In this document: one piece after another, positions 8,590 to 52,842 of the stretch
How the letters are laid out: each line of letters opens with the position of its first letter
How positions within the stretch are numbered: the first letter of the stretch is position 1
Source of the DNA: a virus
Lineage: Duplodnaviria > Caudoviricetes
IMG/VR virus record: IMGVR_UViG_3300043442_000931
Coordinates: 5,574-69,573 of that record
Strand: one strand, 5' to 3'
Length of the DNA stretch: 64,000 nucleotides
Translations under genes and position numbers: made by a program
The notes under the pieces: generated by a model
Database searches by the model: none
What the model was told of the DNA's origin: nothing
The model's input: the letters and a program-made list of their open reading frames with translations, nothing else

Positions 8590-11500
8590 TAGCGGAAACC
8601 TCCTTGGCGCAGAACGCCACCTGAGCGGGTCTGGCGGACGATCTCCTCAACGGCGATGGCTCTCGCTTGGTTGGCGATCGAGCGTTGGGCCTCGACGGAG
8701 AGGGTCTCGCCCGTGTTCTGGACCGAGATGTTGACGGATCCGATCTGGACGCCACCAGCCCCACCTCCGGCGAGTTGGACGGGGATGGATTTGCCGTCGG
8801 GGAGCGGGACCACGGCCTCGTTGTAGCGGCCCTCGCCCACCAGCCCCAGAGTGGGGGTGTTGACGATGCCGCCAGTGGCGAATGCCTTGAAACCGCCACG
8901 GGCGATGCCGCCGTTGGCGAAGCCCAGCGCGGGGTTGAAGGAAAGCCCTGACGCTCCCCAACTGAGATCGGTCGCCGCTCCTAGGAATCCACTTCCCGCA
9001 GACCCGAAAGCGCCACCAGCACCTCCCAACAGGTCAAACAGCCCAAACCCACCGCCTGCACTAACGCCGCCACCCGGAACCAACCCAGGAATCACCTTGC
9101 CCAGGAAGCCAAGAATCCCATCGCCCGCCTGTTTGGCCGACAGGTCCAGCAGGTACTTGCCCAGGCTGTTGAAGAAGTTGCCTGCTGCCTGACGGATGGC
9201 GTCCCAGAAGCTGGTGCCTGCCTGGGCGGCTTGGTCAAAGCCAGAGATGACATCAGTAAACAAGTTGCTGAATCCACCCCGCAGTTGCTCAACCAGTTGG
9301 ACCTGTTGCTGGAGGGCAGCACCCTCACGCAGAGCGGCGGCGTACTTCTCGCGAACTTCGGGACTGAATACAGCACCACTCTGGATTTCCTGCTGGCGGA
9401 TTTGGGCTTCCTCGGGACTGATTTGACCCAGGGCCGCTTGCAACTGGACACGGCTAGACAGATTGGTTTTGTCCTGATTGGCTAGGTTCTGAGCCAGTTG
9501 CAACTGTTTGGTAGAGTCTGCCGCCTTGATCAGTGTCTCCGCTAACTGCTCCAGCAGCTCACTCAGCGTCTTGGCACCCTTGCCGGATTGCTCTAGAGCG
9601 GTAGTCAGCAGCTTTTCCTGATCTGCGGTCAGGACGCCTTCTGCCGCAAAGCGTTTGATCTCCTGTATTGAAACGGCTTGGTCTCCAATCCCTGCCAGGG
9701 AAGTGCGAATAGCCGCCAACTGGTCAGCACCACCTACCGCATCCATTAGCGGCTTCTGCTTCAGATACTGCTCATAGGCTTGAGGGCCTTGCAGGATTGC
9801 CTGGATTTCAGCATCGTTGGCTGTCATCTCGGCTAACGTTTGCGGGATATTCGCCAGGGCTGTTGCGGTGCGCTTGAGCACAGCCTGGAGTGTGACTACC
9901 TTGCGGGCCGCATTTGCCAGCTCTACGGCTCCCAGGTCGGTGGCTGAATAGCCTTGCGGAAATAGCGTTTTGAATGCCTGCTCGACTTCTTCCTTGATGG
10001 AGCTGACTGTGCCACCCAGCCCAGCTTTGTAATTGGCAATTTCCTGGGTGACTGCCTCTAGGTCGTCAGCCAGCTTAGTACCACTCTCGGTGAATACATC
10101 GCTCTTTAGGGCTTTCTGGATTTGGGCATTAGCTTCTCTCAGGAAGCTGGGATCATATAGTCGTCTTTTGCCCTCTTCTAGAATTTTTATCAGCTTGAAT
10201 AGCTCGTCAACCAGTCCTTGTTCGCCTTGAGCATATAGCTGGCTAACCAATGCATTGAATTGGCTGATGGTGGTGCTGAAACGCTCTCTAGCTCGGCCAT
10301 AGGCTTCGTATTCACGTAGTTCTCGGGCTGCGTTGTAGCGTTCCTGGGGGGTGCGGGCTGTGGATACTGCCAAACGTTTGGCGTTTTCGCTGCCTTTGTC
10401 GTTGGCTGTGTTCTGTAGCCCAAACAGAATGCGCTGGGCGTAACGGGCTCCTGGGCTGGGGGAGCGGGATACCACAGCCAGGGCTTGCTGGAGAGCCCCA
10501 CGTAGTGTGCCTTGGGCCTGTTGTTCCGATTGCAGGGCTGTCCCCTCCAGCTTCAAGCCACGAAGGGGATCGACCTGGGCCAGGGCTTTCAGGCTGGGGT
10601 CAGAATCAGCGATTGCTACGGGGTTCAGCTTTTGACGGGCTAGTTGCTTGCGCTGCGCCAGACTCAGGTAAGGGGTGGAATACTGGTCCCGATACAAATC
10701 CTGAAAGTAGCTGAATGCCAGATTTGAAAACTGCTTGGCTTTTGCAGCATCTTTTGTAGACGCCGCTCCCACCAGATCAAGCACAGCCTTAGGTTCTTTG
10801 CCTGCAAATATACCCTCAGTCTGTAAATAGGCTTCGATGCCTTTCAACTGTAGGGCGGGATTGCTGGCAAGCTCTCTGTAGTTTATGCCCTGGCCGGTAT
10901 ACTGCTTGTACTGGTCTGCGGTAAGTGTCAAGCCTGCGGATCGGAGGGCTTTGGCCAGCAGCTTAATGTCTGTTGCAGGCTTAAGCCCCGGCAGCTCAAT
11001 GCCCTCCAGAATCGCTTGAATAATACGGGCTTGGCGCACCTGATTCAGCCAGGATTTGCGTTGGATTTCGGCGATGTCTTCCTGGGATTTGCGAATCTGA
11101 CGCTGTAAGTCCAGTTCGCGGTCCCGTTTCTCATCTGCTAAACCCAACAGTTGGGATGATTCCTCGTTGATGCCCTCGATGCGTTTCTGTAGTTCGGTCT
11201 TGATGGAGTTGCGTCGAATATCGGCAGCTTCGACCTCGGCTTCCTTCACCTTGCGGGCGGCATCAGCCTGGACCTGGGAGGCTTCGGTGAACTTATCTAG
11301 GACGGACTTGCCTGCGTCCTGGGCGAGGTTTCTGGCCAGCTCCACTGCTCGGAGCTGCTCTTGGAAGTCGGGAGCCGTGGGCGAGGATGCACGGAGCCTT
11401 TCCTGTAGCTTCTGGACGATTTCCTCGATTTTTGCGCTGGTGGCTTCGACGGTGCCTGTGAAGATGCCTGCGAGGTCACGCTTGGCGTCCTGGCCTTGTC

Positions 11501-31008: not shown

Positions 31009-32400
31009 TCAGATCAAGTCCCACCAATAGCTGGAGGTTTTGGTCTCGTTCTCGTGATAGGTCGCCAAACAGTGGGCCAGTGCCATCACCATGTCATCCC
31101 GATAGCCGGGGGCGGCTTCACGCTTGCGACCATCATCGGACTGGCGGAACCGCTTCAGCTCCTCCACCAGGGGGCAGTCGGCGGGGAACGTCAGATGATT
31201 TCGCTCCAACATCAGACGTATGCGGTCGGTGTTGGCAATCTTGCGGGGTTGGGTGGTCAGCACGGGCTCAAACGGAATGCCCAGGTACTTCTTTTGCAGG
31301 GCTTCCATGACGATCACACCACCCCCATTGGCCTCGACCGACACCAAGGACGGGTTATAGCCATCAATCAGCTCGGCCACCTGATGCAGGCTGTATTCGG
31401 TGGTGCGACCCGCTTCGTAGTACCACCCAACCACCGCATAGGGCGGCTTCGTCATATCCAGCACGATGGCCGCAAAGCAGTCGCTACCGCTGAAGTTGGG
31501 GTCCACCCCAATCCAATAGTTGCGCCCCACCAGACCCTCCTGACGTTCGCCCTGGGTGGCCCGCTCAATCAGCTCCCGGCTGTAGAGTTCGCTGTCTGAG
31601 GCGGCGAAGTCGATTTCGTATTCGACCCGCCATTGCAGATCCGTCAGCTTACGCTTGGCCTTGGTCTTTTCGGCCCATTCAGGATCCGCCGCATAGACGG
31701 GGTGCTGGCTGTAGTGGAGCGTGACTCGGTTCCAATCGTCATCAGCACCATCCCACAGATCCCAATAGAAGCCGCTGCGCCCGTTCGGCGTCGAATTCAG
31801 AACGATCCGACCTCGGTCCCCCAACATGGACAGGGTGGGAGCCGCACTCTGGTACAGGGCGTCGATGTTGGGGATGTACGCCGCCTCGTCAAAAATCAGC
31901 ACCGAGACAGAGGGCAGACCCCGCGAGGCACTGGAGGTGGCAGGCAGGAAATGGATACCACCACGTCCCTCAAAGCTGATAGCGGTGTTGCTCTCGGTTA
32001 GAAATGCGGGACATAGCTCACCCAACGAGTTGGCCATCAAGCGAATACGCTTCCCCAGTTCGCTGGAGTCGTTCTGGGTTTTGCTGAAGACGGCGGCTGA
32101 AAACCCAGGTTCTCGCAGCACTCGCCACAGCAGATAACTGCATAGCGTTTCACTAATCCCTAGCTGGCGGGACTTGGCGATGATGGTGTTCGGGTGGTGC
32201 TCGATGGCATCAACCAGCTCCACCTGAAAGGGGTATGGGTTGAACTTGGAGACCTTGCCGCTGGTGCGGATAGTCGTCAGCTTGGCAAACTCGGCCCAGG
32301 TGTCAGGGATGTCGGTGTGGACTTCAACGTCATCCTGGCGGCGGGCCTGGATCTTGCGCTCCAGCATCTCCGTCCGACGCTTCAAGGCTGTCAGTGCCAC
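31009..32400 (-). CDS. Terminase large subunit
   Basis: IAKSRQLGIS (Walker A), LIFDEAA (Walker B), STPNG, GVDP and DDMVMALA nuclease motifs. Confidence 0.93.
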   Translation of the reverse strand: MALTALKRRTEMLERKIQARRQDDVEVHTDIPDTWAEFAKLTTIRTSGKVSKFNPYPFQVELVDAIEHHPNTIIAKSRQLGISETLCSYLLWRVLREPGFSAAVFSKTQNDSSELGKRIRLMANSLGELCPAFLTESNTAISFEGRGGIHFLPATSSASRGLPSVSVLIFDEAAYIPNIDALYQSAAPTLSMLGDRGRIVLNSTPNGRSGFYWDLWDGADDDWNRVTLHYSQHPVYAADPEWAEKTKAKRKLTDLQWRVEYEIDFAASDSELYSRELIERATQGERQEGLVGRNYWIGVDPNFSGSDCFAAIVLDMTKPPYAVVGWYYEAGRTTEYSLHQVAELIDGYNPSLVSVEANGGGVIVMEALQKKYLGIPFEPVLTTQPRKIANTDRIRLMLERNHLTFPADCPLVEELKRFRQSDDGRKREAAPGYRDDMVMALAHCLATYHENETKTSSYWWDLI

Positions 32401-32773: not shown

Positions 32774-32791
32774 GACCAAAAGATAGCCAAT

Positions 32792-32833
32792 AAAAAAGCC
32801 CCACACCCAACCGATTGGCTGGATGCAGGGCTT
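32792..32833 (-). terminator. Possible intrinsic terminator ending the early operon
   Basis: AAGCCC/GGGCTT stem followed on the minus strand by a U6 run, just after the DUF932 stop. Confidence 0.45.
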
Positions 32834-32838
32834 TTGGG

Positions 32839-33861
32839 TTAGCGGGAAACCATCTCGAACGCCACCTTGGTGGCATTGTCGATGACGGACTGACCAGTGC
32901 CGAACCAGATACGGTTCAGACGCTTGGCCGCACGTTCCGTCTCGTCGGTATTGCGACCCTGTTGGTGGGTCTCGTACTCGGTGACGGCTTGGTAGGCACC
33001 CCAGAAGGTGCCACGGTATCCGGGGATTTGATACCCCGTCCCAGCCTCAAAGTTGTTCATCAACTTCTCATAGTGCTGGAGCTTGTCGGGAGCTTCCATC
33101 GTTTTGGTCTCCCGGTTATAGAGCTGCTTGGCGTATACCTTTTGCAGGTACTGCCGGAACAGCTCTGTTGTGCAACTGGTGCGTTGCAGCAGGCCGAAGT
33201 TTTCGACCCCTTCCTTGAATTGCCTGCGCTTCAGGTCAATGAAGTCAGGCATATCGCTGATGCGATCCACCACGTTTTTGGTGTGGCGCAGCTTCAAACC
33301 TTTGCGGTTTGCAGTGACGTACACGTCGCCCGTGTATTGGGCGCGTTCCCGACCGAACACAGCGTTGTGTGCCCAGCCGAGTGTGTTTGCGCACACGACC
33401 CTGGTGTTTGTAAACATCCCGCCGAAGGCGGTTGTTCCATCGTGGCTGTTGAAGACCACTAGGAATGCCTCGCAAGGGTCAGTACCACCTACGTCGGCGA
33501 TACCATCCTTGATGCGGGCAGTGATGGCAATCTTGCGACCACCATCCAACGAAACGGCTGCGTCTAGTTGCAGATCCCCGTCCTGAAGGAGCGGGTCCAG
33601 CATCTGGAAACAGGTCTGGTTCTGAATGACCCCATACGTGTCTCTCACGATGGAGAGGGCCGCTTTGGTGTCGCTTCTGCGAAGCACCTTATAGCCTTCG
33701 ATGGAGCCGTGTTCGTCCTGGGGGTCGTAGTATTCAACCACCCAGTCCATACCCGCCAGCTTCAGGGCTTCAGCGGAATTGGGAGCGTCCGCGACCACCG
33801 TCCCCAGACGGTGCCAAGCGGGCTCTTTGACGAACATTCCAGAGTCGAATTGATGAGCCAT
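32839..33861 (-). CDS. DUF932 phage/plasmid-like protein (anti-defence associated)
   Basis: PAWHRLG, AGMDWVVE, YGVIQNQ, NSHDGT, RVVCANTL, TFWGAYQAVTEY. Confidence 0.9.
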   Translation of the reverse strand: MAHQFDSGMFVKEPAWHRLGTVVADAPNSAEALKLAGMDWVVEYYDPQDEHGSIEGYKVLRRSDTKAALSIVRDTYGVIQNQTCFQMLDPLLQDGDLQLDAAVSLDGGRKIAITARIKDGIADVGGTDPCEAFLVVFNSHDGTTAFGGMFTNTRVVCANTLGWAHNAVFGRERAQYTGDVYVTANRKGLKLRHTKNVVDRISDMPDFIDLKRRQFKEGVENFGLLQRTSCTTELFRQYLQKVYAKQLYNRETKTMEAPDKLQHYEKLMNNFEAGTGYQIPGYRGTFWGAYQAVTEYETHQQGRNTDETERAAKRLNRIWFGTGQSVIDNATKVAFEMVSR

Positions 33862-33891: not shown

Positions 33892-33947
33892 GACGGCACT
33901 TAGTTGGTTATCCAGCAGCCCCACGTGGAGGGGTCCGTCCTGCTGCC
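33892..33947 (-). ncRNA. Minimal HDV-like ribozyme #1
   Basis: P1 GGCAGC/GCUGCU, P2 GACGG/CCGUC, P3 CCC/GGG, L3 UCCACGU, P1.1 GG, J4/2 CUAA; predicted cleavage 5' of G33947. Confidence 0.85.
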
Positions 33948-34025
33948 GGGGCCAGGGAGCCAGCTAGCTCCACTTGCCCAGTTCATGATTTGGTTAGCTG
34001 GAGTTATACCAGCTCAAGTGAAATT

Positions 34026-34055
34026 ATTTTATTTCAGGTAGTTGAATCGTGTCAA
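34026..34055 (-). promoter_or_regulatory. Sigma70-type promoter
   Basis: TTGACA-N18-TAAAAT on the minus strand upstream of DUF932. Confidence 0.6.
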
Positions 34056-34056
34056 C

Positions 34057-34380
34057 CTATTCTGGATAAACTCGGATCCGTCCAGACCAGTTGCCCCCCA
34101 CGCCCAGGCGCGAGGCCAAACCTCCAGACATATCCAGCTCACATGTGCCAGAACAGGTATCCGTGACCGGCACGTTATAGACGCAGCGGTCTTTGCGGCA
34201 AACAGTAACGCGCCGCCCAAACCATTGATCTGAGGCGGCGCTAACAGCGGTATGCCAATAGATTTTGCCGCTGGCGGTTGGTCTCCCGTGAAAATCGGGA
34301 TGATAGACCGTACCGTGTGTGGCCATAGCCGGGGCGGCGCTAGTGGCCAGGATTGCCAAACTAGAGAGTAGTTTCTTCAA
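34057..34380 (-). CDS. RlpA-like double-psi beta-barrel protein with signal peptide
   Basis: TTG start KKLLSSLAILATSAAPAMA; FHGRPTASG, VTDTC...LDMSGG. Confidence 0.75.
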   Translation of the reverse strand: MKKLLSSLAILATSAAPAMATHGTVYHPDFHGRPTASGKIYWHTAVSAASDQWFGRRVTVCRKDRCVYNVPVTDTCSGTCELDMSGGLASRLGVGGNWSGRIRVYPE

Positions 34381-34400
34381 ACGTTTTCGCTGAGTTCGAC

Positions 34401-34455
34401 GCCTGTGTTGGTTGGTTATCCAGCTCCACCACGGGGAGGTCACAGGCTGGGAGCC
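34401..34455 (-). ncRNA. Minimal HDV-like ribozyme #2
   Basis: P1 GGCUCC/GGAGCU, P2 GCCUGUG/CACAGGC, P3 ACC/GGU, L3 UCCCCGU, J4/2 CCAA. Confidence 0.88.
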
Positions 34456-34478
34456 GTTGGGGGCCGAAGCCCCACATT

Positions 34479-35303
34479 CTAGATTTCGGTCAGCAGCTCC
34501 AGGCAATAGGCTTTGGAGCCTACGGGGTGGACGCTAGCGATAGCGCCCTCTGCCGAATAGAGTTCGCGGACTTCGTCCGCATTGGAGGTGGTGGTCAGCA
34601 GCACCTGGGCAGGACGCCCGTCGGTGTACCGGACACACACCACATAGGTCCGCTTGGGTGCCAGGGCACCTTCAGCGGGAGCTTCACTGGAGGAGCGCCG
34701 CTTGCGGGCGACCGCTTTCTCCTGTTTGACCACCTCCAGAGCTTTGGATTGGTGGTCAATCGAGCCCTGGGCGGATCGGGTGATCTGGAGGGCGTCGTTG
34801 ATTGAAATCATCTTGGTTTGGACTGCTTCCAGCACCTCGGGGGATGCTGCAATCAGATCCAGACGGTTTCGGATTGTTTGGACAGACTTGCCCAAACGTT
34901 TGGCAATCTCCACCTCGGTGTGGCCCCAGTTCAGGAGCCGTTGGATGGACTTCGCCTCTTCCAGAGGTGTTAGCTGCTCACCCGTATTGGTGAGCATGGC
35001 TATATAGAGCCTGTCGATGTCCGACATGTTCTTCTGGACCCGGATTACCGGGACTTTGAGTTCGGTAAGCCCTTCCTGCATGAGTTGCAGGCAGGCCCGC
35101 AAACGCCGTTCGCCATCTACCAAGTGGGTTTCGCCATTGACGAACCGCACTTGCAGCGGCGTGATGACCCCCTGTTCGCGGATCGAGTTCTTCAACTCGT
35201 CCAGCTTGTGGGGGTCGAAGTGTTCGCGAGGGTTCCACCCCTCGTCGATAATGATGTCCGCAGGGGACATAACGTAGAAATCTTTGCGCGTGAAATCGGC
35301 CAT
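34479..35303 (-). CDS. ParB/Srx N-terminal domain protein with HTH (RepB/Spo0J-like)
   Basis: WNPREHF, LKNSIREQGVITPL, LVDGERRLRA, LTPLEEA...IAKRLGKS. Confidence 0.88.
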   Translation of the reverse strand: MADFTRKDFYVMSPADIIIDEGWNPREHFDPHKLDELKNSIREQGVITPLQVRFVNGETHLVDGERRLRACLQLMQEGLTELKVPVIRVQKNMSDIDRLYIAMLTNTGEQLTPLEEAKSIQRLLNWGHTEVEIAKRLGKSVQTIRNRLDLIAASPEVLEAVQTKMISINDALQITRSAQGSIDHQSKALEVVKQEKAVARKRRSSSEAPAEGALAPKRTYVVCVRYTDGRPAQVLLTTTSNADEVRELYSAEGAIASVHPVGSKAYCLELLTEI

Positions 35304-35327
35304 GTGATTCTTCCGTTGTTATGGAGT

Positions 35328-35380
35328 TGATCCAATTAGCAAAACCAGCACCACCGCGTGGAGGTTTGGATCACGGTGCC
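35328..35380 (-). ncRNA. Minimal HDV-like ribozyme #3
   Basis: P1 GGCACC/GGUGCU, P2 UGAUCCAA/UUGGAUCA, L3 UCCACGC, J4/2 GCUAA. Confidence 0.9.
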
Positions 35381-35402
35381 ACGGGGCTTGAGCCCCCAAA
35401 CG

Positions 35403-35696
35403 TTATTTGAAATTTGCAAATGCCTGATCAGGATCTACCTCAAGGACTGGAACGCGCATATAGACGCCCTCCGCATGAAGCTCCAAGCAGGCTTTTAGCC
35501 GCAGATAACCATCTACCAATTCAGGAACCCCCAAAGCCCCGCCAATGCGCCGGATACGCAAGGGCTTGAGGACACCATTACGTCGAATGGATTCTTTCAG
35601 CTCTGTAACTTGCTCCTGAGTGTAGGTGTTCGGGTGACAGGCTGGTAGAACCTTGATAAGCCGGGGTTGAATCATGTACACGTCATTGCGAGGCAT
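35403..35696 (-). CDS. Stand-alone ParB N-terminal domain protein
   Basis: ELKESIRRNGVLKPL, LVDGYLRLKAC; ATG MPRNDV at 35696. Confidence 0.75.
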   Translation of the reverse strand: MPRNDVYMIQPRLIKVLPACHPNTYTQEQVTELKESIRRNGVLKPLRIRRIGGALGVPELVDGYLRLKACLELHAEGVYMRVPVLEVDPDQAFANFK

Positions 35697-35721
35697 TATC
35701 GTATCCCGTTGTTGTTTAGGA

Positions 35722-35773
35722 GATCCAATCAGCGAAATCAGCACCACCACGCGAAGGTTTGGATCACGGTGCC
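35722..35773 (-). ncRNA. Minimal HDV-like ribozyme #4
   Basis: P2 GAUCCAA/UUGGAUC, L3 UUCGCGU with compensatory P1.1 partner GA, J4/2 GCUGA. Confidence 0.9.
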
Positions 35774-35805
35774 ACGGGGGCAGTGCCCCCAAAAATGTTT
35801 ACATC

Positions 35806-36147
35806 TTAAGAAATTGCCACTGCACAGAGAATATCATTTCTGACAGTGTCGAGTTCCTGCGTATGATCCAAGCCCAGTGCTTGGGCAAAGGAGCGAATCT
35901 GGGCTTCGGATGCTGCCGCAACGGGCAGCTCTTCCGCCAACAGCTTGTCAATCTGGTCCAGGGCCAGCTTCAGTTTGATAATCATCGCTTCGGGCTTTCC
36001 AGCCACGAATTCGAGGATCGTCTTAGCTAGCTGCCAAACCCAGTGCATGAGCTGCTGGGTTACGGCTTGGACGCCGAGTACCACTCGCTGGATAACGATT
36101 CGCGCCTTGTGAATCAGAGAACGCAGTGCGCTTTTCAGGTCGGTCAT
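35806..36147 (-). CDS. Hypothetical protein
   Basis: ATG MTDLKS preceded by the A/C-rich leader. Confidence 0.65.
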   Translation of the reverse strand: MTDLKSALRSLIHKARIVIQRVVLGVQAVTQQLMHWVWQLAKTILEFVAGKPEAMIIKLKLALDQIDKLLAEELPVAAASEAQIRSFAQALGLDHTQELDTVRNDILCAVAIS

Positions 36148-36478
36148 TTGTGGTTCCTTTGTGTTGTTTGGTTTGGCCGATATTTGTATGCGCCTCGGAA
36201 CCGGGCGCAGCATCCAAAGCCGCAGCGACTTTCAGTCGCAAGCTGTCCGTGGACATACGGCTGTAGTTGCGGATTCTCAAACGTTTGGCGAGAACCAACA
36301 GGTCACGCCGGTTATCTGGAATTGCACTAGGGGCGGGTGGTTCGGGGTGGGTTGGGGGTGGAGCTTCCGCCAAACGTTTGGCAGCAAACAGCTCCACCAG
36401 CCAATCCACAAGCGCCCAAACCAGCGCAGCAAACAGCACCACCGGATAGGCCGGATGGTTACGGTCAATCGTGTTCAT
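36023..36478 (-). CDS. Hypothetical protein with Rho-N-like helical motif (C-terminus overlaps the next gene)
   Basis: RRDLLVLAKRLRIRNYSRMSTDSL; N-terminal hydrophobic segment. Confidence 0.55.
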   Translation of the reverse strand: MNTIDRNHPAYPVVLFAALVWALVDWLVELFAAKRLAEAPPPTHPEPPAPSAIPDNRRDLLVLAKRLRIRNYSRMSTDSLRLKVAAALDAAPGSEAHTNIGQTKQHKGTTNDRPEKRTAFSDSQGANRYPASGTRRPSRNPAAHALGLAAS

Positions 36479-36535
36479 TTGTTTTTCCTAATGCTGGTAG
36501 CGCCACCGTGTAGAGAGTGGGGCGCTAGTTGTTGA

Positions 36536-36544
36536 ATTATACCA
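36536..36544 (-). promoter_or_regulatory. Extended -10 promoter
   Basis: TGgTATAAT on the minus strand just 3' of twister #1. Confidence 0.5.
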
Positions 36545-36558
36545 CGATAAGCGTGGTT

Positions 36559-36610
36559 GCTCCCTCTGCGTTTGAACCCCGGCTTGGGACGGGCGTAGGC
36601 CGCATTAAGC
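36559..36610 (-). ncRNA. Twister ribozyme (type P1) #1
   Basis: GCU UAA UGCG GCC UAC GCCCG UCCCAAGC CGGG GUUCAAA CGCA GAGGG AGC; P1, P2, P4, T1 (CCC/GGG) and T2 (GC/GC) intact; U^A cleavage at 36607/36606. Confidence 0.9.
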
Positions 36611-36633
36611 GTGGGGCCGAAGCCCCACTATGG

Positions 36634-37191
36634 TTAGCAGAAGATGTGGCTCTGATCGCCGTATCGGATCTCGTAGAAGTCGCCGGTTTCCAGCTCCTCC
36701 CACGCACCTTTGTAGTCGATGTTGTGCCGGATCAGATCCGGCAGCGAGTCCACATCCACGCTCTCGTGGATGAATTCATAGGCGAATTCCCAGGCATAGT
36801 CATAGGTGCCTCGGTACGCCTCGGCGAACTCCTCGACGCACCCCCACCGCATGTGGTGGTAGGTACAAGAGTTCCACTTCAGATACAGCTCCCATTCCAG
36901 CTTACGGGCTTCGATTTCTTCGAAGTCCTCGGCAATCTGGCCCAGGTCAGCCAGGGTGGCGAATTCGCCGAGCTGGCCGCCGCATCGTTCGGAGTCGTGG
37001 ATGGCCCACTCCTCGGCGATGTCGCCGGTCTTGCGGGCGTAGGGGGATTGGGCCAGCATGGCCTGGATGGCCTGCTCATGGTCCGTAACCCCATCCAGCT
37101 CCAGCCAGCACCCGTGTAGGATGCCAGCGTTGTAGTCGCTCAAGCTGGCAATGTATACCGCTGGAGCATTTTGAGTTAGAGTGATGGTCAT
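36634..37191 (-). CDS. ardA: Antirestriction protein ArdA
   Basis: VYIASLSDYNAGILHGCWL, EEWAIHDSE, acidic C-terminus with YIDY-like NIDYKG. Confidence 0.9.
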   Translation of the reverse strand: MTITLTQNAPAVYIASLSDYNAGILHGCWLELDGVTDHEQAIQAMLAQSPYARKTGDIAEEWAIHDSERCGGQLGEFATLADLGQIAEDFEEIEARKLEWELYLKWNSCTYHHMRWGCVEEFAEAYRGTYDYAWEFAYEFIHESVDVDSLPDLIRHNIDYKGAWEELETGDFYEIRYGDQSHIFC

Positions 37192-37223
37192 GGAATTTGT
37201 GATTCCGTTGTTTGGTTTACGAC

Positions 37224-37258
37224 CCCTGGGACAGAGAAGTCGCCCAGGGGTTTTTTTT
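37224..37258 (+). terminator. Strong hairpin with T8 run (terminator on + strand; 5' leader hairpin of ardA on - strand)
   Basis: CCCCTGGG-N14-CCCAGGGG-TTTTTTTT. Confidence 0.55.
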
Positions 37259-37293
37259 GCGTGAAACGTGAAATTATCCAATTTCGGAACTGG

Positions 37294-37494
37294 TTAGCGC
37301 CACAGCTTCTCCTCACAGATTCGTGTGGGCTGGCCAACCAAAAGCTGATAGCGTTTGGCGGAAGCCAGACTGTCGAAGTATCGTTCTGCCCACCAGTGGT
37401 GGGTATTGGAGTCATAACGCTCCACCACATATAGCGTCGTCCACTTCGGCACTACCGAGTCGAAGACGATATCGCGTAAGTCGAACGTACTCAT
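37294..37494 (-). CDS. Hypothetical protein
   Basis: 66 aa, start overlaps the upstream stop. Confidence 0.55.
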   Translation of the reverse strand: MSTFDLRDIVFDSVVPKWTTLYVVERYDSNTHHWWAERYFDSLASAKRYQLLVGQPTRICEEKLWR

Positions 37495-37736
37495 TCACAC
37501 GACCCATCAGCTAGAAAGGTGGTGCAACCGTTGGGCAGTCGCCCAATCAGGTGGCCGTTCCACCGCAGCATTGCGGGGCTGTGGGTGGGAGCTATGTCGA
37601 ACCGTAGCTCCCGCAGAATCTCTGTGGGGTGTAGCCCGTAGTCACGACACCACCTATTGAGTAGGTGTCGCTGGGGCTCACTCAGACGCCGCAGGGTTGG
37701 TCCCTGCTCATATGCCTCGTAGGAAGAGAGGATCAT
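37491..37736 (-). CDS. Hypothetical protein
   Basis: 81 aa following ribozyme #5 and its leader. Confidence 0.6.
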   Translation of the reverse strand: MILSSYEAYEQGPTLRRLSEPQRHLLNRWCRDYGLHPTEILRELRFDIAPTHSPAMLRWNGHLIGRLPNGCTTFLADGSCE

Positions 37737-37761
37737 GTTTTGATTCCGATGTTTGGTTAGT

Positions 37762-37814
37762 CACTCGTTGGTTGGTTATCCAGCACCACCGCGAGGAGGT
37801 CGAGTGTTGGTGCC
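37762..37814 (-). ncRNA. Minimal HDV-like ribozyme #5
   Basis: P2 CACUCG/CGAGUG, L3 UCCUCGC (same as the HDV genomic loop), J4/2 CCAA. Confidence 0.9.
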
Positions 37815-37837
37815 ACGGGGCTCGGAGCCCCAGTCCG

Positions 37838-38488
37838 CTAGTCGCGGAGCAGTACCGGCATCAGATGACAGTACAGTCGAACGCCATCCTCCAGCTTGGC
37901 GCTGAAGTGCAGCATCGAACGGTTGGTCTTGCCCCATTGCAGGGACACAACCGTTCTCGGACACAGAGCCACTACCACCCCCAGGAAGTCCTGGGCGAGG
38001 CGGGCATCGAAGTTCAGCGACTCCACCCCCTGGGACTCGGTTCCCTCAATCAGGGAATCAAGGTCGGGGAATGTATACCCCGCATGGGCGGTGGAAATCT
38101 TCTTGTAGTCGAGGTGCATATTCGCACCCTTTTTCCGATTCAGAACATGCGCGATGTCCGAATCGAGAATATCGGCTCGGTGAGCCGAGCCCAGCCGACC
38201 CTTGGCGCGAAACTCGGCCACATTCAGGATGAGTTCGTCATCCCGCATATAGCCGCATGTTATAGCCTTGTCGGCTGTTATGTCGTAAATCTCGGCAGGA
38301 ACTGCCGGGATCTCGATTCGGAACATCCGCCAGCCATCCGTGGCATCCAGCAACAGCTTCGTGCCGTTCTGGACTTTGCGAATTCGTACAACGTTGCTGA
38401 TGGGCAGCTTCGTTGCGTCTTGGCTGGAGAACTGGACTGCTGCCCACAGAATACGGGGCGGCAGGATTGCGAGAAGTTCGCCGTTCAT
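37838..38488 (-). CDS. DNA sliding clamp (beta subunit)-like protein
   Basis: LDATDGWRMFRI resembles ATDGHRL; YTFPDLDSLI, NFDARL, and C-terminal HLMPV resemble DnaN repeats. Confidence 0.5.
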   Translation of the reverse strand: MNGELLAILPPRILWAAVQFSSQDATKLPISNVVRIRKVQNGTKLLLDATDGWRMFRIEIPAVPAEIYDITADKAITCGYMRDDELILNVAEFRAKGRLGSAHRADILDSDIAHVLNRKKGANMHLDYKKISTAHAGYTFPDLDSLIEGTESQGVESLNFDARLAQDFLGVVVALCPRTVVSLQWGKTNRSMLHFSAKLEDGVRLYCHLMPVLLRD

Positions 38489-38522
38489 GGTTGGTTCCGT
38501 TGTGTTTCAGTTGTTTGGTTGG

Positions 38523-38578
38523 TAGCACCACTCAGTCGAAGTCAACACCACCACGTGAAGGTGGGTGCTATTGGTGTC
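38523..38578 (-). ncRNA. Minimal HDV-like ribozyme #6
   Basis: P1 GACACC/GGUGUU, P2 UAGCACC/GGUGCUA, L3 UUCACGU (same as CPEB3) with P1.1 GA, J4/2 CUGA. Confidence 0.9.
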
Positions 38579-38599
38579 GTGGGGCCGAAGCCCCTAGGG

Positions 38600-39028
38600 T
38601 TAGGCGACCATCTGATTCAGGCGACGATATTCGTCCTGGGTGTATTCGTATAGTTCTGCGATACCCACCGGACAGAATGCCTCGTGGATTGCCGGAATCA
38701 GACTGACGGACATTGAGGCGTATAAGTCCCCATTTATACAGTCTGCATTAGGCAACTCAAAAACGTCGTGAGCATGCCCGGTTTGACACAAACCACAAGG
38801 CAGATGCAGCTCAACCCGCAGCTTCATAGCTGCAAGGCTTGTTATTGCTTTTGGGGTGTAGGGAGACTCATACATAACTACATTGACTTGCATAAACATG
38901 TACCGAACCAGTAACAGTTCAGTAGTTCCATTCAAACGCTCCGGGGTCTCCCAAAGTTTTTGAATGAATAGTGGGTTAACGCTAGCCAATGCAAGCTGCT
39001 TCATGTCATACAGATTTTTGAAGTTCAT
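38600..39028 (-). CDS. Hypothetical protein
   Basis: ATG MNFKN after ribozyme #7 leader. Confidence 0.6.
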   Translation of the reverse strand: MNFKNLYDMKQLALASVNPLFIQKLWETPERLNGTTELLLVRYMFMQVNVVMYESPYTPKAITSLAAMKLRVELHLPCGLCQTGHAHDVFELPNADCINGDLYASMSVSLIPAIHEAFCPVGIAELYEYTQDEYRRLNQMVA

Positions 39029-39051
39029 TGTGATTTCGTTGTTTGGTTGGT

Positions 39052-39103
39052 TGCTCGTTGGTTGGTTATCCAGCACCACCACGGGGAGGTGAGCATTGGT
39101 GCC
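39052..39103 (-). ncRNA. Minimal HDV-like ribozyme #7
   Basis: P2 UGCUC/GAGCA, L3 UCCCCGU, J4/2 CCAAC. Confidence 0.8.
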
Positions 39104-39127
39104 ACGGAGCCCACAGGCTCCGCATCC

Positions 39128-39235
39128 TTACAGGGTCATCAGTTGGTAAAGGCAGTAGAGAATGATTATCAGTCCCACTATCAGAATGAATAGTGCGCCT
39201 TTTGGGTTAAGCGCAACGAACAACAAGCTGCTCAT
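39128..39235 (-). CDS. Small membrane peptide (35 aa)
   Basis: MSSLLFVALNPKGALFILIVGLIIILYCLYQLMTL; GGAGA upstream. Confidence 0.5.
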   Translation of the reverse strand: MSSLLFVALNPKGALFILIVGLIIILYCLYQLMTL

Positions 39236-39353
39236 GGCTTTTCTCCTGGGTATTGGTTGATTGAAACACGGGCAGTTTCGGACCCTGGTCGATTAGTTCC
39301 AAGGAACGATAGCGACGGCGCAGATGCGCCTCGCGGTTGATTGTGTGAAACAT
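39207..39353 (-). CDS. Small hypothetical protein (48 aa)
   Basis: MFHTINREAHLRRRYRSLELIDQ... directly after ribozyme #8 leader. Confidence 0.5.
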   Translation of the reverse strand: MFHTINREAHLRRRYRSLELIDQGPKLPVFQSTNTQEKSHEQLVVRCA

Positions 39354-39374
39354 GTTGTGATCCGTTGTTTGGTT

Positions 39375-39427
39375 GATCAGTTGGTTGGTTATCCAGCACC
39401 ACCACGGGGAGGTCTGATCGGGGTGCC
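39375..39427 (-). ncRNA. Minimal HDV-like ribozyme #8
   Basis: P2 GAUCAG/CUGAUC, L3 UCCCCGU, J4/2 CCAA. Confidence 0.9.
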
Positions 39428-39449
39428 ACGGGGCTCTAGGCCCCTGCTG

Positions 39450-39896
39450 CTAGGGCAGCACTTGAACGGGAAGAACGTAGCTACGGGCATTGCAGGTTTC
39501 GCCGTAAAGATCGAGGATGCGATCTCGCTCAACATCAGCGGCTGCCTGTGCGGATTCTTCCGTTGTGTGGATAGTCAACGGATTGAAGTCGGTGCCACCC
39601 TCATATACGTCGTACCAAGACACGTAACCCTGAAACAGGGTTACAACTGCGGGGGCTGCAAAAACCTCGTCTTCGGTGATAGCGATTTTGTCCCGATCAG
39701 GGGGGACAATCAGCTCCTCCAAAGAGGAGATTCTGGTTTTTGGCACGTCAGCACCTTCGCAGAACTCCAGGGGGTCGTACCCAGCCTGGAAAGCACCCTC
39801 CAGGGATGCTTGTGCGGCGCTCAAGTCACCATCTACTTCCATGTAGATGGTGTAGTTGTTGCTGTAGACAACTACAGCCTTGTAGTAGCGAGTCAT
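39450..39896 (-). CDS. Hypothetical acidic protein
   Basis: 148 aa after ribozyme #9 leader. Confidence 0.65.
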   Translation of the reverse strand: MTRYYKAVVVYSNNYTIYMEVDGDLSAAQASLEGAFQAGYDPLEFCEGADVPKTRISSLEELIVPPDRDKIAITEDEVFAAPAVVTLFQGYVSWYDVYEGGTDFNPLTIHTTEESAQAAADVERDRILDLYGETCNARSYVLPVQVLP

Positions 39897-39919
39897 GGTT
39901 TATTCCGTTGTTGTTTGAT

Positions 39920-39972
39920 TGCTCGTTGGTTGGTTATCCAGCACCACCACGTGGAGGTTGAGCATTGGTGCC
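39920..39972 (-). ncRNA. Minimal HDV-like ribozyme #9
   Basis: P2 UGCUC/GAGCA, L3 UCCACGU, J4/2 CCAA. Confidence 0.85.
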
Positions 39973-40015
39973 ATAGCGGACCAACCGCGAGTGCGGCTGG
40001 TCCAGTTCAAACGCT

Positions 40016-40429
40016 TTAGACGATTTGGATGTCGTAGTACAACTGACAGCCCCGCTCCGCGAGGAAATTCAGTATCTGCTGCTGGAGTACATCCGCAGGA
40101 TTACGATCCTGGGATGCGAGTTCCGCACAGGTGACGCTCCGAGGAGCGTCGGGATTCTCAGCCACATGCAGCTCCAGGGCCTTCAGGGGGACACCGCGCT
40201 TGGCTTCGACGGCTGTCATATAGGCAGCGCAGAGGTTGTACAGCTCCACATCGCGTTGCGGCGTTACGGGCGTGACCTCGTCCGTATGGACATCCAGACG
40301 GGCCACGACCCGAATGGTTTCAATCTCGACTTGGGGTTGAGGTTGATAGTTGAAGTGACGCTTACTGACTGCGGTATAGGTGCCGAAGGCAGTTTGCTGG
40401 GTCTTCTTGTTAGAGAAAAGTCCGAACAT
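40016..40429 (-). CDS. Hypothetical protein
   Basis: ATG MFGLF after ribozyme #10 leader. Confidence 0.6.
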   Translation of the reverse strand: MFGLFSNKKTQQTAFGTYTAVSKRHFNYQPQPQVEIETIRVVARLDVHTDEVTPVTPQRDVELYNLCAAYMTAVEAKRGVPLKALELHVAENPDAPRSVTCAELASQDRNPADVLQQQILNFLAERGCQLYYDIQIV

Positions 40430-40457
40430 TTTTTGTTGATTCCGTTGTTGTTTGGTT

Positions 40458-40511
40458 GCATCACTTGGTTGGTTATCCAACACCACCACGGGGAGGTGGA
40501 TGCGTGGTGTC
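40458..40511 (-). ncRNA. Minimal HDV-like ribozyme #10
   Basis: P1 GACACC/GGUGUU, P2 GCAUC/GAUGC, L3 UCCCCGU. Confidence 0.85.
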
Positions 40512-40532
40512 ATTGGGGCCGAAGCCCCAAAA

Positions 40533-40817
40533 TTAAACCCAATCATCAGGTAGTTCTGCTTCGCAATCTATAGCGAACAGATCACCATCCTGATACAGGT
40601 AGTATTCGACTGAAGAATTATCGAACTTAAGACGTGCTTTAGCTAGGACTTCGTCCCAGCAATCCCAGTAATTTTCTGCGTCTGGTCCTGCAAGAAGCAC
40701 ATCTAAGTCTTCTTGCATAATACCTAACAAAGCGGAGGTATTACCGTATTTTTCAGCAAATCTTTTGGGGACATAGACGCCAAAACAGCCGTCTACTATA
40801 AGCATTACTGAGTCCAT
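40533..40817 (-). CDS. Hypothetical acidic protein
   Basis: 94 aa; G.YVP..FA and YYLYQDGDLFA motifs familiar from phage early proteins. Confidence 0.7.
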   Translation of the reverse strand: MDSVMLIVDGCFGVYVPKRFAEKYGNTSALLGIMQEDLDVLLAGPDAENYWDCWDEVLAKARLKFDNSSVEYYLYQDGDLFAIDCEAELPDDWV

Positions 40818-40841
40818 TTGCTATTCCTTTGTTGTTTGGTT

Positions 40842-40895
40842 GCATCACTTGGTTGGTTATCCAACACCACCACGGGGAGGTGGATGCGTGGTGTC
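40842..40895 (-). ncRNA. Minimal HDV-like ribozyme #11 (identical to #10)
   Basis: Same sequence as 40458..40511. Confidence 0.85.
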
Positions 40896-40917
40896 ATCGG
40901 GGCCGAAGCCCCAGCGT

Positions 40918-41331
40918 TCACAGGACAGCATCGAACCACGAGTGCAGGTCGCGCACTAATGTGCGAACTTGCCAGTAGTATTCGTCCTGATAGTTTTTGT
41001 CTAAAGTGCCGCTCTTGAACTCCTGCTGGAGGTAATCCAGATGGAGCTTTAAGTAAAAGAAGGCGTTATCGACTGCTTGAATTTTCATCATGTACTGAGT
41101 CGCTGGTAAAACCAGATTCAGTTCAGGCGCTACGTTTGTAAATTCGTAGTGCCAGCAATCCAGATACACCATATGGTATTTAATGATTTGCACCGCAACC
41201 CCTAGTTGTTGAGGGGTCATCGGACCATACACATATAGCTGCTCTACGTCATTGAGTAACCTGTGTATAGCCTTGATTTTGGTGTTAAGGATTTGCAGAT
41301 TCGCTTCAGCTTGCGAGATTTCGGTAGTCAT
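40918..41331 (-). CDS. Hypothetical protein
   Basis: ATG MTTEI after ribozyme #12 leader. Confidence 0.6.
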   Translation of the reverse strand: MTTEISQAEANLQILNTKIKAIHRLLNDVEQLYVYGPMTPQQLGVAVQIIKYHMVYLDCWHYEFTNVAPELNLVLPATQYMMKIQAVDNAFFYLKLHLDYLQQEFKSGTLDKNYQDEYYWQVRTLVRDLHSWFDAVL

Positions 41332-41356
41332 TGATTTGTGATTCCGTTGTTTGGTT

Positions 41357-41410
41357 AAGTCAATTAGTTGGTTATCCAGCACCACCACGAGGAGGTTTGA
41401 CTTTGGTGCC
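41357..41410 (-). ncRNA. Minimal HDV-like ribozyme #12
   Basis: P2 AAGUCAA/UUGACUU, L3 UCCUCGU, J4/2 CUAA. Confidence 0.9.
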
Positions 41411-41432
41411 ATCGGGGCCGAAGCCCCAGAGC

Positions 41433-41672
41433 TTACAGAACGTCCGCCAGCCAGTTTTCGTAGGCTTCGCAGGCGTTTGTAATGATCTCGATTTCTTCGT
41501 CCAGTTCCGCCTGAGTGAGACGGCCAGCGAGGTAATCCTTTTCCAGCTTGTTCAGCTTGGCCATCTGACGGTCGAACCCGTCTTGGATGGCTCGGATTTG
41601 GTCTTCCCGCGTGATGCGGGAAGCTTGTTGGCTGCGCTCGATGCGACGGACCAGGGTATTGAAGTTGGACAT
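41433..41672 (-). CDS. Hypothetical coiled-coil protein
   Basis: ATG MSNFNT after ribozyme #13 leader. Confidence 0.65.
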   Translation of the reverse strand: MSNFNTLVRRIERSQQASRITREDQIRAIQDGFDRQMAKLNKLEKDYLAGRLTQAELDEEIEIITNACEAYENWLADVL

Positions 41673-41698
41673 TGTTTGTTCCGTTGTTGTTTGGTTGT

Positions 41699-41751
41699 TA
41701 CTTGTTAGTTGGTTATCCAGCACCGGCGCGGGGAGCCCAAGTAGTGGTGCC
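41699..41751 (-). ncRNA. Minimal HDV-like ribozyme #13
   Basis: P3 GGC/GCC (covaried), P2 UACUUG/CAAGUA, L3 UCCCCGC, J4/2 CUAA. Confidence 0.9.
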
Positions 41752-41772
41752 ACGGGGCTTGCGCCCCAAACG

Positions 41773-42036
41773 TTATGCAAGTGCCTGACAGGCTGAAACC
41801 GCCTCATCCAGCGAGTCGAACCCGCACATGACGCGGCAATCATCCGCCAGACTGAGCGTCCATCCCTGGTCAGTTTCGTACTGACACAGGAAGCCATCAG
41901 CCCGGCTGACGCTGAAACCAATTGGTTTTTCGTCATCGCCTAGACACGAGATAACACGGAAACGACCGTCGAACTTGATTCCGGGGAAACAGGTTTCGAC
42001 GGTATCAGCGAACTGGTCAAAGCTCAGGAAAGTCAT
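41773..42036 (-). CDS. Hypothetical protein (first gene of the leftward early operon)
   Basis: 87 aa after twister #2 and the A/C-rich leader. Confidence 0.65.
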   Translation of the reverse strand: MTFLSFDQFADTVETCFPGIKFDGRFRVISCLGDDEKPIGFSVSRADGFLCQYETDQGWTLSLADDCRVMCGFDSLDEAVSACQALA

Positions 42037-42060
42037 CGGTTGTTCCGTTGTTGTTTGGTT

Positions 42061-42130
42061 GTGCCCCTCTGCGTTTACCGGACTTGGGACCGGCCAACCA
42101 ATTCAGAAACTGGTTGGGTCGCATTAGCAC
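42061..42130 (-). ncRNA. Twister ribozyme (type P1, with P3 stem) #2
   Basis: GUGC UAA UGCG ACC CAACCA-N10-UGGUUG GCCGG UCCCAAGU CCGG UAAA CGCA GAGGG GCAC; T2 covaried to AC/GU; cleavage 42126/42125. Confidence 0.92.
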
Positions 42131-42416
42131 CACTCCAGCAAACGTTTGGCGAGGGCCGCACGTGCTGGCGTGTTGCTTCTGGTTGGGACGTACCGCACCC
42201 ACTCGGTGGACTAAACCGTGTCGTCTTCTCCCGTTTCGCGGACCAGATCCGCGCCTCTGTCACCCCGAGGAAGGGCCTTTTATTCAATTGGTCCGTTCAA
42301 ATTGCTACTTCAGGGAACGAGCGCGGTCCGCTTCCGCCGGTTTGTTCTTTTTGTGACGGATCACCTTGAACCGTCCTGCGTTATTTGATTTGAGCTTTCC
42401 CTTTCGGTATGTACCT

Positions 42417-42445
42417 ATTATAGCGCAACTCAACTTATAGTGCAA
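42417..42445 (-). promoter_or_regulatory. Strong sigma70-type leftward early promoter
   Basis: TTGCAC-N17-TATAAT. Confidence 0.75.
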
Positions 42446-42530
42446 CAAATAATTTGGAGAATTCCGGGTTATTTTCTTGGAAAAGCCCAGATTTTGACGC
42501 TATAACGGTACTTATAGTAAGAGAAACATC

Positions 42531-42764
42531 ATGTCTGAGCACAATCCTGGGCTTCGCTTGCAGTTCCACCGCAAACTCCAGGGGCTGGAGCAGCGCGATC
42601 TGGCTGAGTGCCTGGGCGTATCCTCCCAGGCGATCTCGAACTGGGAGGGGAATCGGGCGACACCCCGCCTCAAGCCCCACCAGTACGCGACACTGCTGCG
42701 GATGCTGAAGCTGGAGCCTGACCAGCTAGCGGAGATTTATGCGACCAGCTCCACCTCGATGTGA
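42531..42764 (+). CDS. XRE/Cro-like HTH regulator
   Basis: LEQRDLAECLGVSSQAISNWEGNRATP. Confidence 0.88.
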   Translation: MSEHNPGLRLQFHRKLQGLEQRDLAECLGVSSQAISNWEGNRATPRLKPHQYATLLRMLKLEPDQLAEIYATSSTSM

Positions 42765-52552: not shown

Positions 52553-52778
52553 CGGAGCCCAGAACTGTCTGGTTCAGGTTCGTGATGGTGGCTTTAAGGC
52601 TATCGCTGAATATACGCCCGAACAAATGTACAGAGGGTTAGTATTCACGAATCGCGAGGATGCCGAACACGTAGCTCGGCATCTTAGGATGCAATGGCGT
52701 CGTCCAGTACGGGTGTATTCGGCCCCCCAGGTTGAGCGACTATTACAAAATCCTCGCCCTGGAAAGCCCCACCGCTAG
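52521..52778 (+). CDS. Hypothetical protein
   Basis: 85 aa in the operon. Confidence 0.5.
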   Translation: MEYVLTTNRRDGAQNCLVQVRDGGFKAIAEYTPEQMYRGLVFTNREDAEHVARHLRMQWRRPVRVYSAPQVERLLQNPRPGKPHR

Positions 52779-52842
52779 ACTGGTGAAACCACAAATTTGG
52801 TCCCCTGTCGCTAGGCGGGGGACTATTAGCGAGAACTTCTTT

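Follow-up and report, generated by a model that had tools for sequence, protein, structure and literature searches.

Fifteen predicted self-cleaving ribozymes, most of them HDV-like, lie between the genes of a putative early operon in a tailed phage

The DNA analyzed here, referred to as the window, comprises 64,000 nucleotides (positions 5,574 to 69,573) of the tailed-phage record IMGVR_UViG_3300043442_000931 (Duplodnaviria; Caudoviricetes), a single virus record of 69,573 bp which is rated 99% complete; positions given below are those of the window. [quoted passage not shown] All 15 are intergenic, are on the same strand as the genes and occupy spacers among 19 open reading frames (ORFs), a co-directional run of small genes which includes ArdA, two ParB-like proteins and DUF932. 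An earlier note on this DNA had proposed these classes, numbers and placement on the coding strand, and the proposal was borne out by descriptor searches, a covariance model and Rfam run in E-value mode; the motifs genuinely belong to families of self-cleaving ribozymes. The best reading of the region is an early (anti-defence and takeover) operon of a tailed phage of about 70 kb, in which the ribozymes probably cut one long early message into mostly single-gene mRNAs with protected ends.

The HDV-like units were defined by a core descriptor comprising P1 (6 bp from G1), P3 (3 bp), a 7-nt L3 (U-N-C-N-C-G-N) and two P1.1 pairs, a first loose descriptor having been dropped as too permissive (hundreds of matches). 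The core descriptor returned exactly 13 units in the 64-kb window, all 13 on the minus strand, and 50 shuffles gave one match. A stricter descriptor, to which P2 (at most one mismatch, directly after J4/2) and the catalytic C were added, kept nine of the 13 and produced zero matches when A, G or U replaced the catalytic C. No descriptor match was found on the plus strand of the window. When scored with a covariance model built from the window's own HDV-like units (R1), the 13 units reached 47.6 to 71.6 bits and the next-best match in the whole phage 16 bits.

Numbering all motifs U01 to U15 from the candidate early promoter onwards, each of the 13 HDV-like units could be parsed as P1(6) / J1/2 / P2 / P3(3) / U-NC-NCGY / P3' / P1' / G-N / short linker / CYRA / P2'. 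P1 has 6 bp with a G1-U pair at the cleavage site in every unit, and its pairs 2, 4 and 5 covary. P3, again in 13 of 13, forms 3 bp around a 7-nt L3 of the type U-[C/U/G]-C-N-C-G-Y and occurs as ACC/GGU, GGC/GCC or CCC/GGG. The P1.1 pseudoknot, in which L3 forms two pairs with the two bases that follow P1, was 100% paired; one pair changes from C-G to U-A in two of the 12 distinct units, U09 and U12 (L3 UUC), together with a variant linker. P2, which differs in sequence unit by unit, is also present, with at most one mismatch in nine of the 13 and as 5-6 bp with a bulge or terminal mismatch in U04, U05, U06 and U15. The position of P4 is taken by a short linker of 5-8 nt, and the catalytic C is the first base of J4/2 (C-Y-R-A) in all 13. 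In a MAFFT alignment of the 12 distinct units (A1), P1, P3 and P1.1 contained standard pairs in 132 of 132 cells with double changes in six of the 11 pairs; none of 500 shuffles was as good, and slid registers came nowhere close.

Related ribozymes were found in a 4.2-kb contig (L126) with the same gene order as the window (ParB - DPBB - DUF932 - HTH/terS - TerL) and protein identities of 78% for DUF932 and 80% for DPBB. The earlier note had suggested Rfam and custom covariance scans of related phages as a check; the custom model detected two units in L126, one at each of the slots orthologous to U14 and U15 and both at 62.3 bits, and none in more distant DUF932-bearing relatives. Compared with U14 and U15, P1 and the core are unchanged and P2 is altered by paired substitutions, and the second unit has a P3 of ACC/GGU compared with CCC/GGG in its window ortholog. 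These P2 and P3 differences are compensatory changes between orthologs. Pairing was also 100% over 43 distinct sequences, taken from the window, from L126 and from unrelated contigs of phages or prophages, with double changes in eight of the 11 pairs, in an alignment that was itself fitted to the model.

For theta ribozymes of Caudoviricetes (Kienbeck et al. 2024, PMC10879173), the published function is to process phage tRNAs at their 3' ends, for the most part in gut Bacteroidota phages, and a section heading of that paper describes the tRNA-associated ones as active in vitro. The motif used there was based on Riccitelli et al. 2014, and it also gave 526 non-tRNA ('isolated') matches with 'unknown biological functions' (PMC10879173). 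The HDV-like units of the window have in common with theta ribozymes the nested double pseudoknot, the replacement of P4 by a short unpaired linker and the same L3, P1.1 and J4/2 words, and both of their linker subtypes, including that of U09, occur in the supplement of Kienbeck et al. 2024, verbatim in its 'isolated' lists. Since rows of that supplement share the element order, the L3 and J4/2 words and the two linker subtypes, the window's units are, as judged from their sequence, members of the published theta or minimal HDV-like motif and of its 'isolated' (non-tRNA) class. In contrast to the published tRNA-processing ribozymes, they lie between protein genes. In the tRNA-associated subgroup, no more than 5 nt separate the cleavage site from the 3' end of a tRNA; a tRNA search of the window found none, which rules out tRNA processing as the role of these ribozymes. 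With respect to Rfam, gathering thresholds returned nothing in the window and E-value mode matched no HDV family there; weak E-value-mode matches to mir-1017, NsiR1 and CrcZ were rejected as chance or plain hairpins.

Both twisters were matched to twister-P1 (RF03160) in Rfam E-value mode, U01 at 42130-42061 (minus strand) with 55.8 bits and an E-value of 1.3e-10, and U11 at 36611-36558 (minus strand) with 44.2 bits and 2.9e-7. Although neither reached the RF03160 gathering cut-off of 67.2, E-values of 1e-10 and 3e-7 are significant for the 10.5-kb search made. The core nucleotides and the P1, P2 and P4 stems were found in both, with the conserved letters matched in the Rfam alignment; in U11 only the optional stem is absent, and P1 has 3 bp. 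Directly 3' of U11 and 5' of g13, an extended -10 word, TGGTATAAT, was noted at 36536-36544 (minus strand), which may be a further internal promoter.

The features of the operon are as follows, all on the minus strand unless marked:

42531 to 42764 (plus strand): divergent gene for an XRE-family HTH regulator, adjoining the early promoter region (Pfam HTH_31 31.4 bits, HTH_3 27 bits)
42417 to 42445: candidate early promoter, read from the sequence; perfect -10 TATAAT at about 42422-42417
42131 to 42412: 5' leader of about 280 nt, which would be removed by the U01 cut
42061 to 42130: U01, type-P1 twister; predicted cut 42126/42125; 24-nt leader to g01
41773 to 42036: g01, 87 aa, no family
41699 to 41751: U02, HDV-like; G+1 at 41751; 61.8 bits; GC hairpin within the 21 nt past the g01 stop
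41433 to 41672: g02, 79 aa, no family
41357 to 41410: U03, HDV-like; 71.5 bits
40918 to 41331: g03, 137 aa, no family
40842 to 40895: U04, HDV-like; 71.6 bits; 5-bp P2 with one further pair across a bulge
40533 to 40817: g04, 94 aa, phrog_21544 (unknown function)
40458 to 40511: U05, HDV-like; ribozyme sequence identical to U04, whole module 89% identical to that of U04
40016 to 40429: g05, 137 aa, no family
39920 to 39972: U06, HDV-like; 68.3 bits; 12-bp hairpin (-23 kcal/mol) ahead
39450 to 39896: g06, 148 aa, no family
39375 to 39427: U07, HDV-like; 67.3 bits
39128 to 39353: g07 (48 aa) and, overlapping it, the hydrophobic g07b (35 aa; AGGAG of its own), not separated by a ribozyme
39052 to 39103: U08, HDV-like; 63.6 bits
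38600 to 39028: g08, 142 aa, no family
38523 to 38578: U09, HDV-like variant; 47.6 bits; L3 UUC, P1.1 G-A, short linker, J4/2 CUGA
37838 to 38488: g09, 216 aa, no family
37762 to 37814: U10, HDV-like; 67 bits
36634 to 37736: g10 (81 aa), g11 (66 aa, ATGA overlap) and g12, ArdA (185 aa; PF07275 75.5 bits), predicted tricistronic
36558 to 36611: U11, type-P1 twister; predicted cut 36607/36606; GC hairpin ahead
35806 to 36478: g13 (151 aa) and g14 (113 aa), 125-nt overlap, no ribozyme between
35722 to 35773: U12, HDV-like variant (L3 UUC, P1.1 G-A); 48.4 bits
35403 to 35696: g15, 97 aa, ParB N-terminal domain (PF02195 27.5 bits); 37% identical to g16
35328 to 35380: U13, HDV-like, short-linker variant; 54.4 bits
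34479 to 35303: g16, 274 aa, ParB-like (ParB_N and HTH_ParB)
34401 to 34455: U14, HDV-like; L126 ortholog at 343-398
34057 to 34380: g17, 107 aa, TTG start, signal-peptide-like N-terminus, DPBB (RlpA-like; PF03330 23.3 bits, below cut-off); L126 homologue 80% identical
34026 to 34055: internal sigma-70-type promoter (TTGACA, 18 nt, TAAAAT), from the consensus scan; conserved in L126
33892 to 33947: U15, HDV-like, in the DUF932 5' untranslated region (UTR), 3' of the internal promoter; 61.3 bits; L126 ortholog at 850-904
32839 to 33861: g18, 340 aa, DUF932 (PF06067 150 bits)
32786 to 32835: intrinsic terminator closing the operon, with a U-run after a 19-bp hairpin (-37.2 kcal/mol, z -7.1); conserved in L126

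The layout suggested in the earlier note (stop codon, GC-rich hairpin, cleavage site, ribozyme, A/C-rich leader, start codon) holds across the spacers and describes the 12 HDV-like slots directly after genes as well as twister U11. The hairpin starts 5-9 nt after the stop codon (14 nt ahead of U06), mostly has a 5-6-bp stem with a UUCG-type loop at -10 to -23 kcal/mol, and is followed after 0-3 nt by the cleavage site. The HDV-like ribozymes are 52-56 nt long, and the A/C-rich leader of 20-34 nt was found in this operon only. U15 is off this plan, as it lies 109 nt past g17 in a spacer which contains the internal promoter. Messages that end in a 3' hairpin and start with a ribozyme-capped 5'-OH would need such a layout.

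Transcription of the whole region as a single early message from 42417-42445 had been part of the original claim. That site has a perfect -10 element and abuts the divergent XRE gene, but its -35 element is poor and the consensus scan did not call it; moreover, the second promoter at 34055-34026 lies upstream of the last ribozyme and is kept in L126, so that the region is not strictly transcribed as a single message. U01 is located about 280 nt downstream of the candidate early promoter. A ribozyme is therefore present downstream of each of the two promoters, by which 5' ends would be standardised in addition to the separation of cistrons. No convincing minus-strand terminator was found inside the operon, the three sites called by the terminator scan all being within coding sequence, and the total of terminator-like sites called was no more than in shuffles. 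The packaging genes come after the operon's terminator. The 280-nt 5' leader folded no better than shuffles (z -0.56), and a structured RNA there was rejected. Between the XRE gene and the candidate early promoter, a 9-nt word, ACTATAAGT, occurs twice within 42440-42520 (minus strand), and these copies may be operators.

Beyond L126, a megablast search against 50,697 phage records found no close DNA relatives, and a ParB-based search of viral contigs found no relatives. The ArdA-based search returned distant relatives only, and these had no theta units. Six distant DUF932 relatives at 44-49% identity (L127, L128 and L140-L143) contained no ribozymes by Rfam or by R1, apart from one weak and unconvincing model match of 20.6 bits in L127. 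Because these DUF932 relatives have no detectable ribozymes, the array is a lineage-specific habit which is neither tied to DUF932 nor required by the genes. A lineage-specific pattern joining the ribozyme 3' half to the leader gave zero matches in genome contigs, and its single match in a metagenome contig was rejected as chance.

For the wider survey, a strict pattern for the commonest subtype was applied to IMG/VR and to bacterial genome contigs. It matched 77 IMG/VR stretches and 33 stretches in bacterial genome contigs, the latter mostly Clostridia metagenome-assembled genomes (MAGs). Most stretches held one unit, and arrays of three to six were found in some unrelated phage contigs: five units in 2 kb in L059, five to six in L005 and L012, five in L006, and three each plus a twister-P1 in L055 and L066. 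These arrays have the same module of hairpin, ribozyme, ribosome-binding site (RBS) and ATG, but with ordinary Shine-Dalgarno leaders, and the genes which they flank are unrelated from phage to phage. Among 128 core matches, an abutting upstream hairpin was present in 70% versus 23% at random positions, a downstream ORF in 80% versus 49%, and both together in 59% versus 12%. No other sampled record comes near 15 motifs, and the density and regularity of the present array are the highest among the sampled records. Theta-type units were seen mixed with twister-P1, RAGATH-16, RAGATH-36 and RAGATH-4 in small-gene regions of L059 (IMGVR_UViG_3300021431_000090), L066 and L055. In L035 (IMGVR_UViG_3300026549_001121), several theta-type units accompany an array of some 25 tRNA genes, which is the published tRNA-processing context.

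The earlier note knew of no mRNA-punctuating array of this density, and as a claim of novelty this proved overstated. In prophages, Perreault et al. 2011 (PMC3088659) reported single genes or short blocks, with ardA among the genes, that are flanked by several hammerheads, and proposed that long transcripts are processed into single-gene mRNAs. In that work, clustered hammerheads from three bacterial genomes cleaved in vitro, among them an Agrobacterium tumefaciens triple flanking ardA, a set which also cleaved in Escherichia coli, and the flanked gene sets differed between phages (PMC3088659). The kind of arrangement is thus already known, in phages since 2011, and both systems consist of several coding-strand self-cleaving ribozymes between phage genes, ardA included; the 15 motifs of the window likewise lie on the gene strand in spacers flanking single genes or short blocks. 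The systems differ in class, being HDV-like here with the whole ribozyme left on the downstream mRNA and hammerhead there, and in number, as tandem or triple hammerheads were tested there compared with 15 motifs here. The present operon also adds a module that is regular throughout and includes a 3' hairpin and a shared leader. In one of the contigs surveyed here, L135, two type-II hammerheads above the Rfam cut-off, at 9671-9736 and 10642-10708 (plus strand), lie on either side of an ArdA homologue, in agreement with the 2011 report.

According to a 2019 review (PMC6765202), ribozymes in bacteria tend to lie close to one another and to particular genes, the class of motif seems to matter little, and their roles remain largely elusive; where it treats these neighbourhoods, HDV-like ribozymes are not named among the co-occurring classes. 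Compared with the gene neighbourhoods shared by bacterial twister and hammerhead ribozymes and with the Rfam RAGATH motifs, twisters take two of the 15 slots here, and in the other arrays theta-type units stand beside twister-P1 or motifs of the RAGATH-4, -16 and -36 families. In the literature collection searched in full text, no paper describing HDV-like ribozymes in such arrays was found. New here are the use of the HDV-like class as the main punctuation, the density (15 motifs within 8.2 kb) and, plausibly, a role for 'isolated' theta ribozymes. Among engineered parts, RiboJ insulators and ribozyme- or Csy4-processed operons place a cleaving element between the promoter or upstream gene and the RBS to strip off upstream context and give a standard 5' end. 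Ribozymes likewise follow both promoters here, in a system that, in contrast to those parts, is natural and repeated.

If the ribozymes act as proposed, host RNA polymerase would start at a repressor-controlled promoter near 42420 and run to the strong terminator at about 32800, with the last gene also transcribed from the internal promoter at 34055-34026. The 13 HDV-like ribozymes and two twisters would be expected, from their family membership, to fold and cut themselves as the RNA emerges. Because the cut of an HDV-like ribozyme falls at its own 5' edge, every product upstream of a cut would end 0-3 nt past the GC-rich hairpin with a 2',3'-cyclic phosphate, and every product downstream of it would carry its 5'-OH on the folded double pseudoknot, after which come the A/C-rich leader, which is unstructured, and the start codon. 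Fifteen cuts would yield about 15 mRNAs, 12 of them monocistronic, two bicistronic and one tricistronic, plus a discarded 280-nt 5' leader; promoter-derived 5' sequence would be removed, and every message would get the same kind of 5' end. The benefit may be the same insulated 5' UTR for every gene, ends on which 5'-monophosphate-dependent RNases and 3' exonucleases act poorly, and expression independent of operon position and of host processing enzymes. We infer the stabilisation against RNases and the RBS insulation from what is generally known of RNA in bacteria. A search of the phage for RtcB and RNA ligase domains found neither, so that its own genes lend no support to re-ligation or circularisation, and this idea was rejected.

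Several points weigh against this proposal. Punctuation is incomplete, with four gene junctions lacking a ribozyme: g07/g07b (own Shine-Dalgarno), g10/g11 (ATGA overlap), g11/ArdA (hairpin and leader only) and g13/g14 (overlap). The early promoter is a candidate, Rfam has no model which detects the HDV-like units, the twisters both fall below the curated Rfam threshold, and the P2 helices of four units are imperfect. Distant DUF932-bearing relatives (44-49% identity) have no detectable ribozymes. The claimed stability and insulation benefits, finally, draw on RNase knowledge centred on E. coli, which may not be that of the host.

The processing of one long message nevertheless remains the likely account when set against three rivals. 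It is quite improbable that the units are structured, non-catalytic repeats (for example protein-binding or 5'-stabilising) which are HDV-like in looks only; the missing Rfam HDV match fits that view, but every element that defines theta ribozymes is there (the catalytic C, G1-U wobble and P1.1 pseudoknot among others), and theta-motif members self-cleave in vitro according to the section heading cited above (PMC10879173). Alternatively, the module of hairpin, ribozyme and leader might serve mainly as a portable cassette boundary, in which 50-110 nt of shared sequence would promote gene exchange, duplication or deletion by homologous recombination and self-cleavage would merely make each cassette expressible wherever inserted. 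The modules are indeed 48-89% identical to each other, the identical ribozymes U04 and U05 bracket one gene, U12 and U13 (75%) stand ahead of the paralogous ParB-like g15 and g16, and array-flanked gene sets are completely different between phages, as they were in Perreault et al. 2011 (PMC3088659). Most modules have, however, diverged well below what efficient recombination needs, and the compensatory changes point clearly to selection on RNA pairing and not on DNA identity. We regard this as an unlikely main function; it would complement RNA processing, not replace it.

A further rival holds that cleavage sets differing, mostly lower expression, with units that vary in rate or condition-dependence and act as gene-specific switches of decay or timing. 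In keeping with this, P2 quality and linker type vary between units, two slots have another ribozyme class, and reviews note that UTR ribozymes can alter expression in bacteria (PMC6765202). The catalytic core is, however, nearly invariant, the units of 52-56 nt have no aptamer-like extra domain, and the protective hairpin kept upstream of every cut argues for product stability, so that we give such tuning little chance. Defined, protected mRNA ends with 5'-UTR insulation are favoured as the selected function because the operon limits are clear, nearly every junction has the same module and ribozymes follow both promoters.

The operon is unusually readable, coming from a nearly complete phage genome with clear limits and the same modular frame at almost every junction, and it offers a role for non-tRNA theta ribozymes. 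More speculatively, and less probably than not, the module could be a general, host-independent 'mRNA end-maker' of tailed phages and the main function of the hundreds of non-tRNA theta ribozymes. If so, each early mRNA, even one that starts at a promoter, would get a pseudoknot-capped 5'-OH end and a hairpin/cyclic-phosphate 3' end, anti-defence messages would be shielded from 5'-end-dependent host RNases or RNA-targeting defences, and genes would become freely exchangeable cassettes. Being compact (about 110 nt) and protein-independent, the module could also be reused as a natural insulator part.

Two of the junctions without a ribozyme showed further features. The g13 ORF enters g14 by 125 nt (36023-36147, minus strand), reading through an A/C-rich leader with no preceding hairpin or ribozyme; the punctuation module may have been lost there, and the original g13 stop removed with it. 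The g11-ArdA spacer contains, at about 37256-37270 (minus strand), GGATAA and an A/C-containing tail resembling a ribozyme 3' half, which may be a decayed unit. The same spacer has a perfect plus-strand intrinsic terminator (hairpin and U8) at 37208-37258, the site of the weak Rfam NsiR1 match. About 1.35 kb upstream of it on the plus strand, a promoter-like site (CTGACA, 16 nt, TATGAT) was found at 35840-35867; from the two together, an antisense RNA spanning g14, g13, the twister and ArdA might arise.

Pfam and PHROGs searches gave essentially no function for g01-g11. Elsewhere, the phage encodes a large terminase (31009-32400, minus strand), RusA, ThyX, a PD-(D/E)XK nuclease, a primase-helicase, DNA polymerase A and an intein-bearing ribonucleotide reductase. 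Its terminase is nearest to those of Nodularia and Cylindrospermopsis phages (about 31% identity) and a Spirulina MAG contains a DUF932 homologue, from which a cyanobacterial host is a reasonable guess, no more. The ribonucleotide reductase gene (52732-55341, plus strand) is split by an intein with a LAGLIDADG endonuclease domain.

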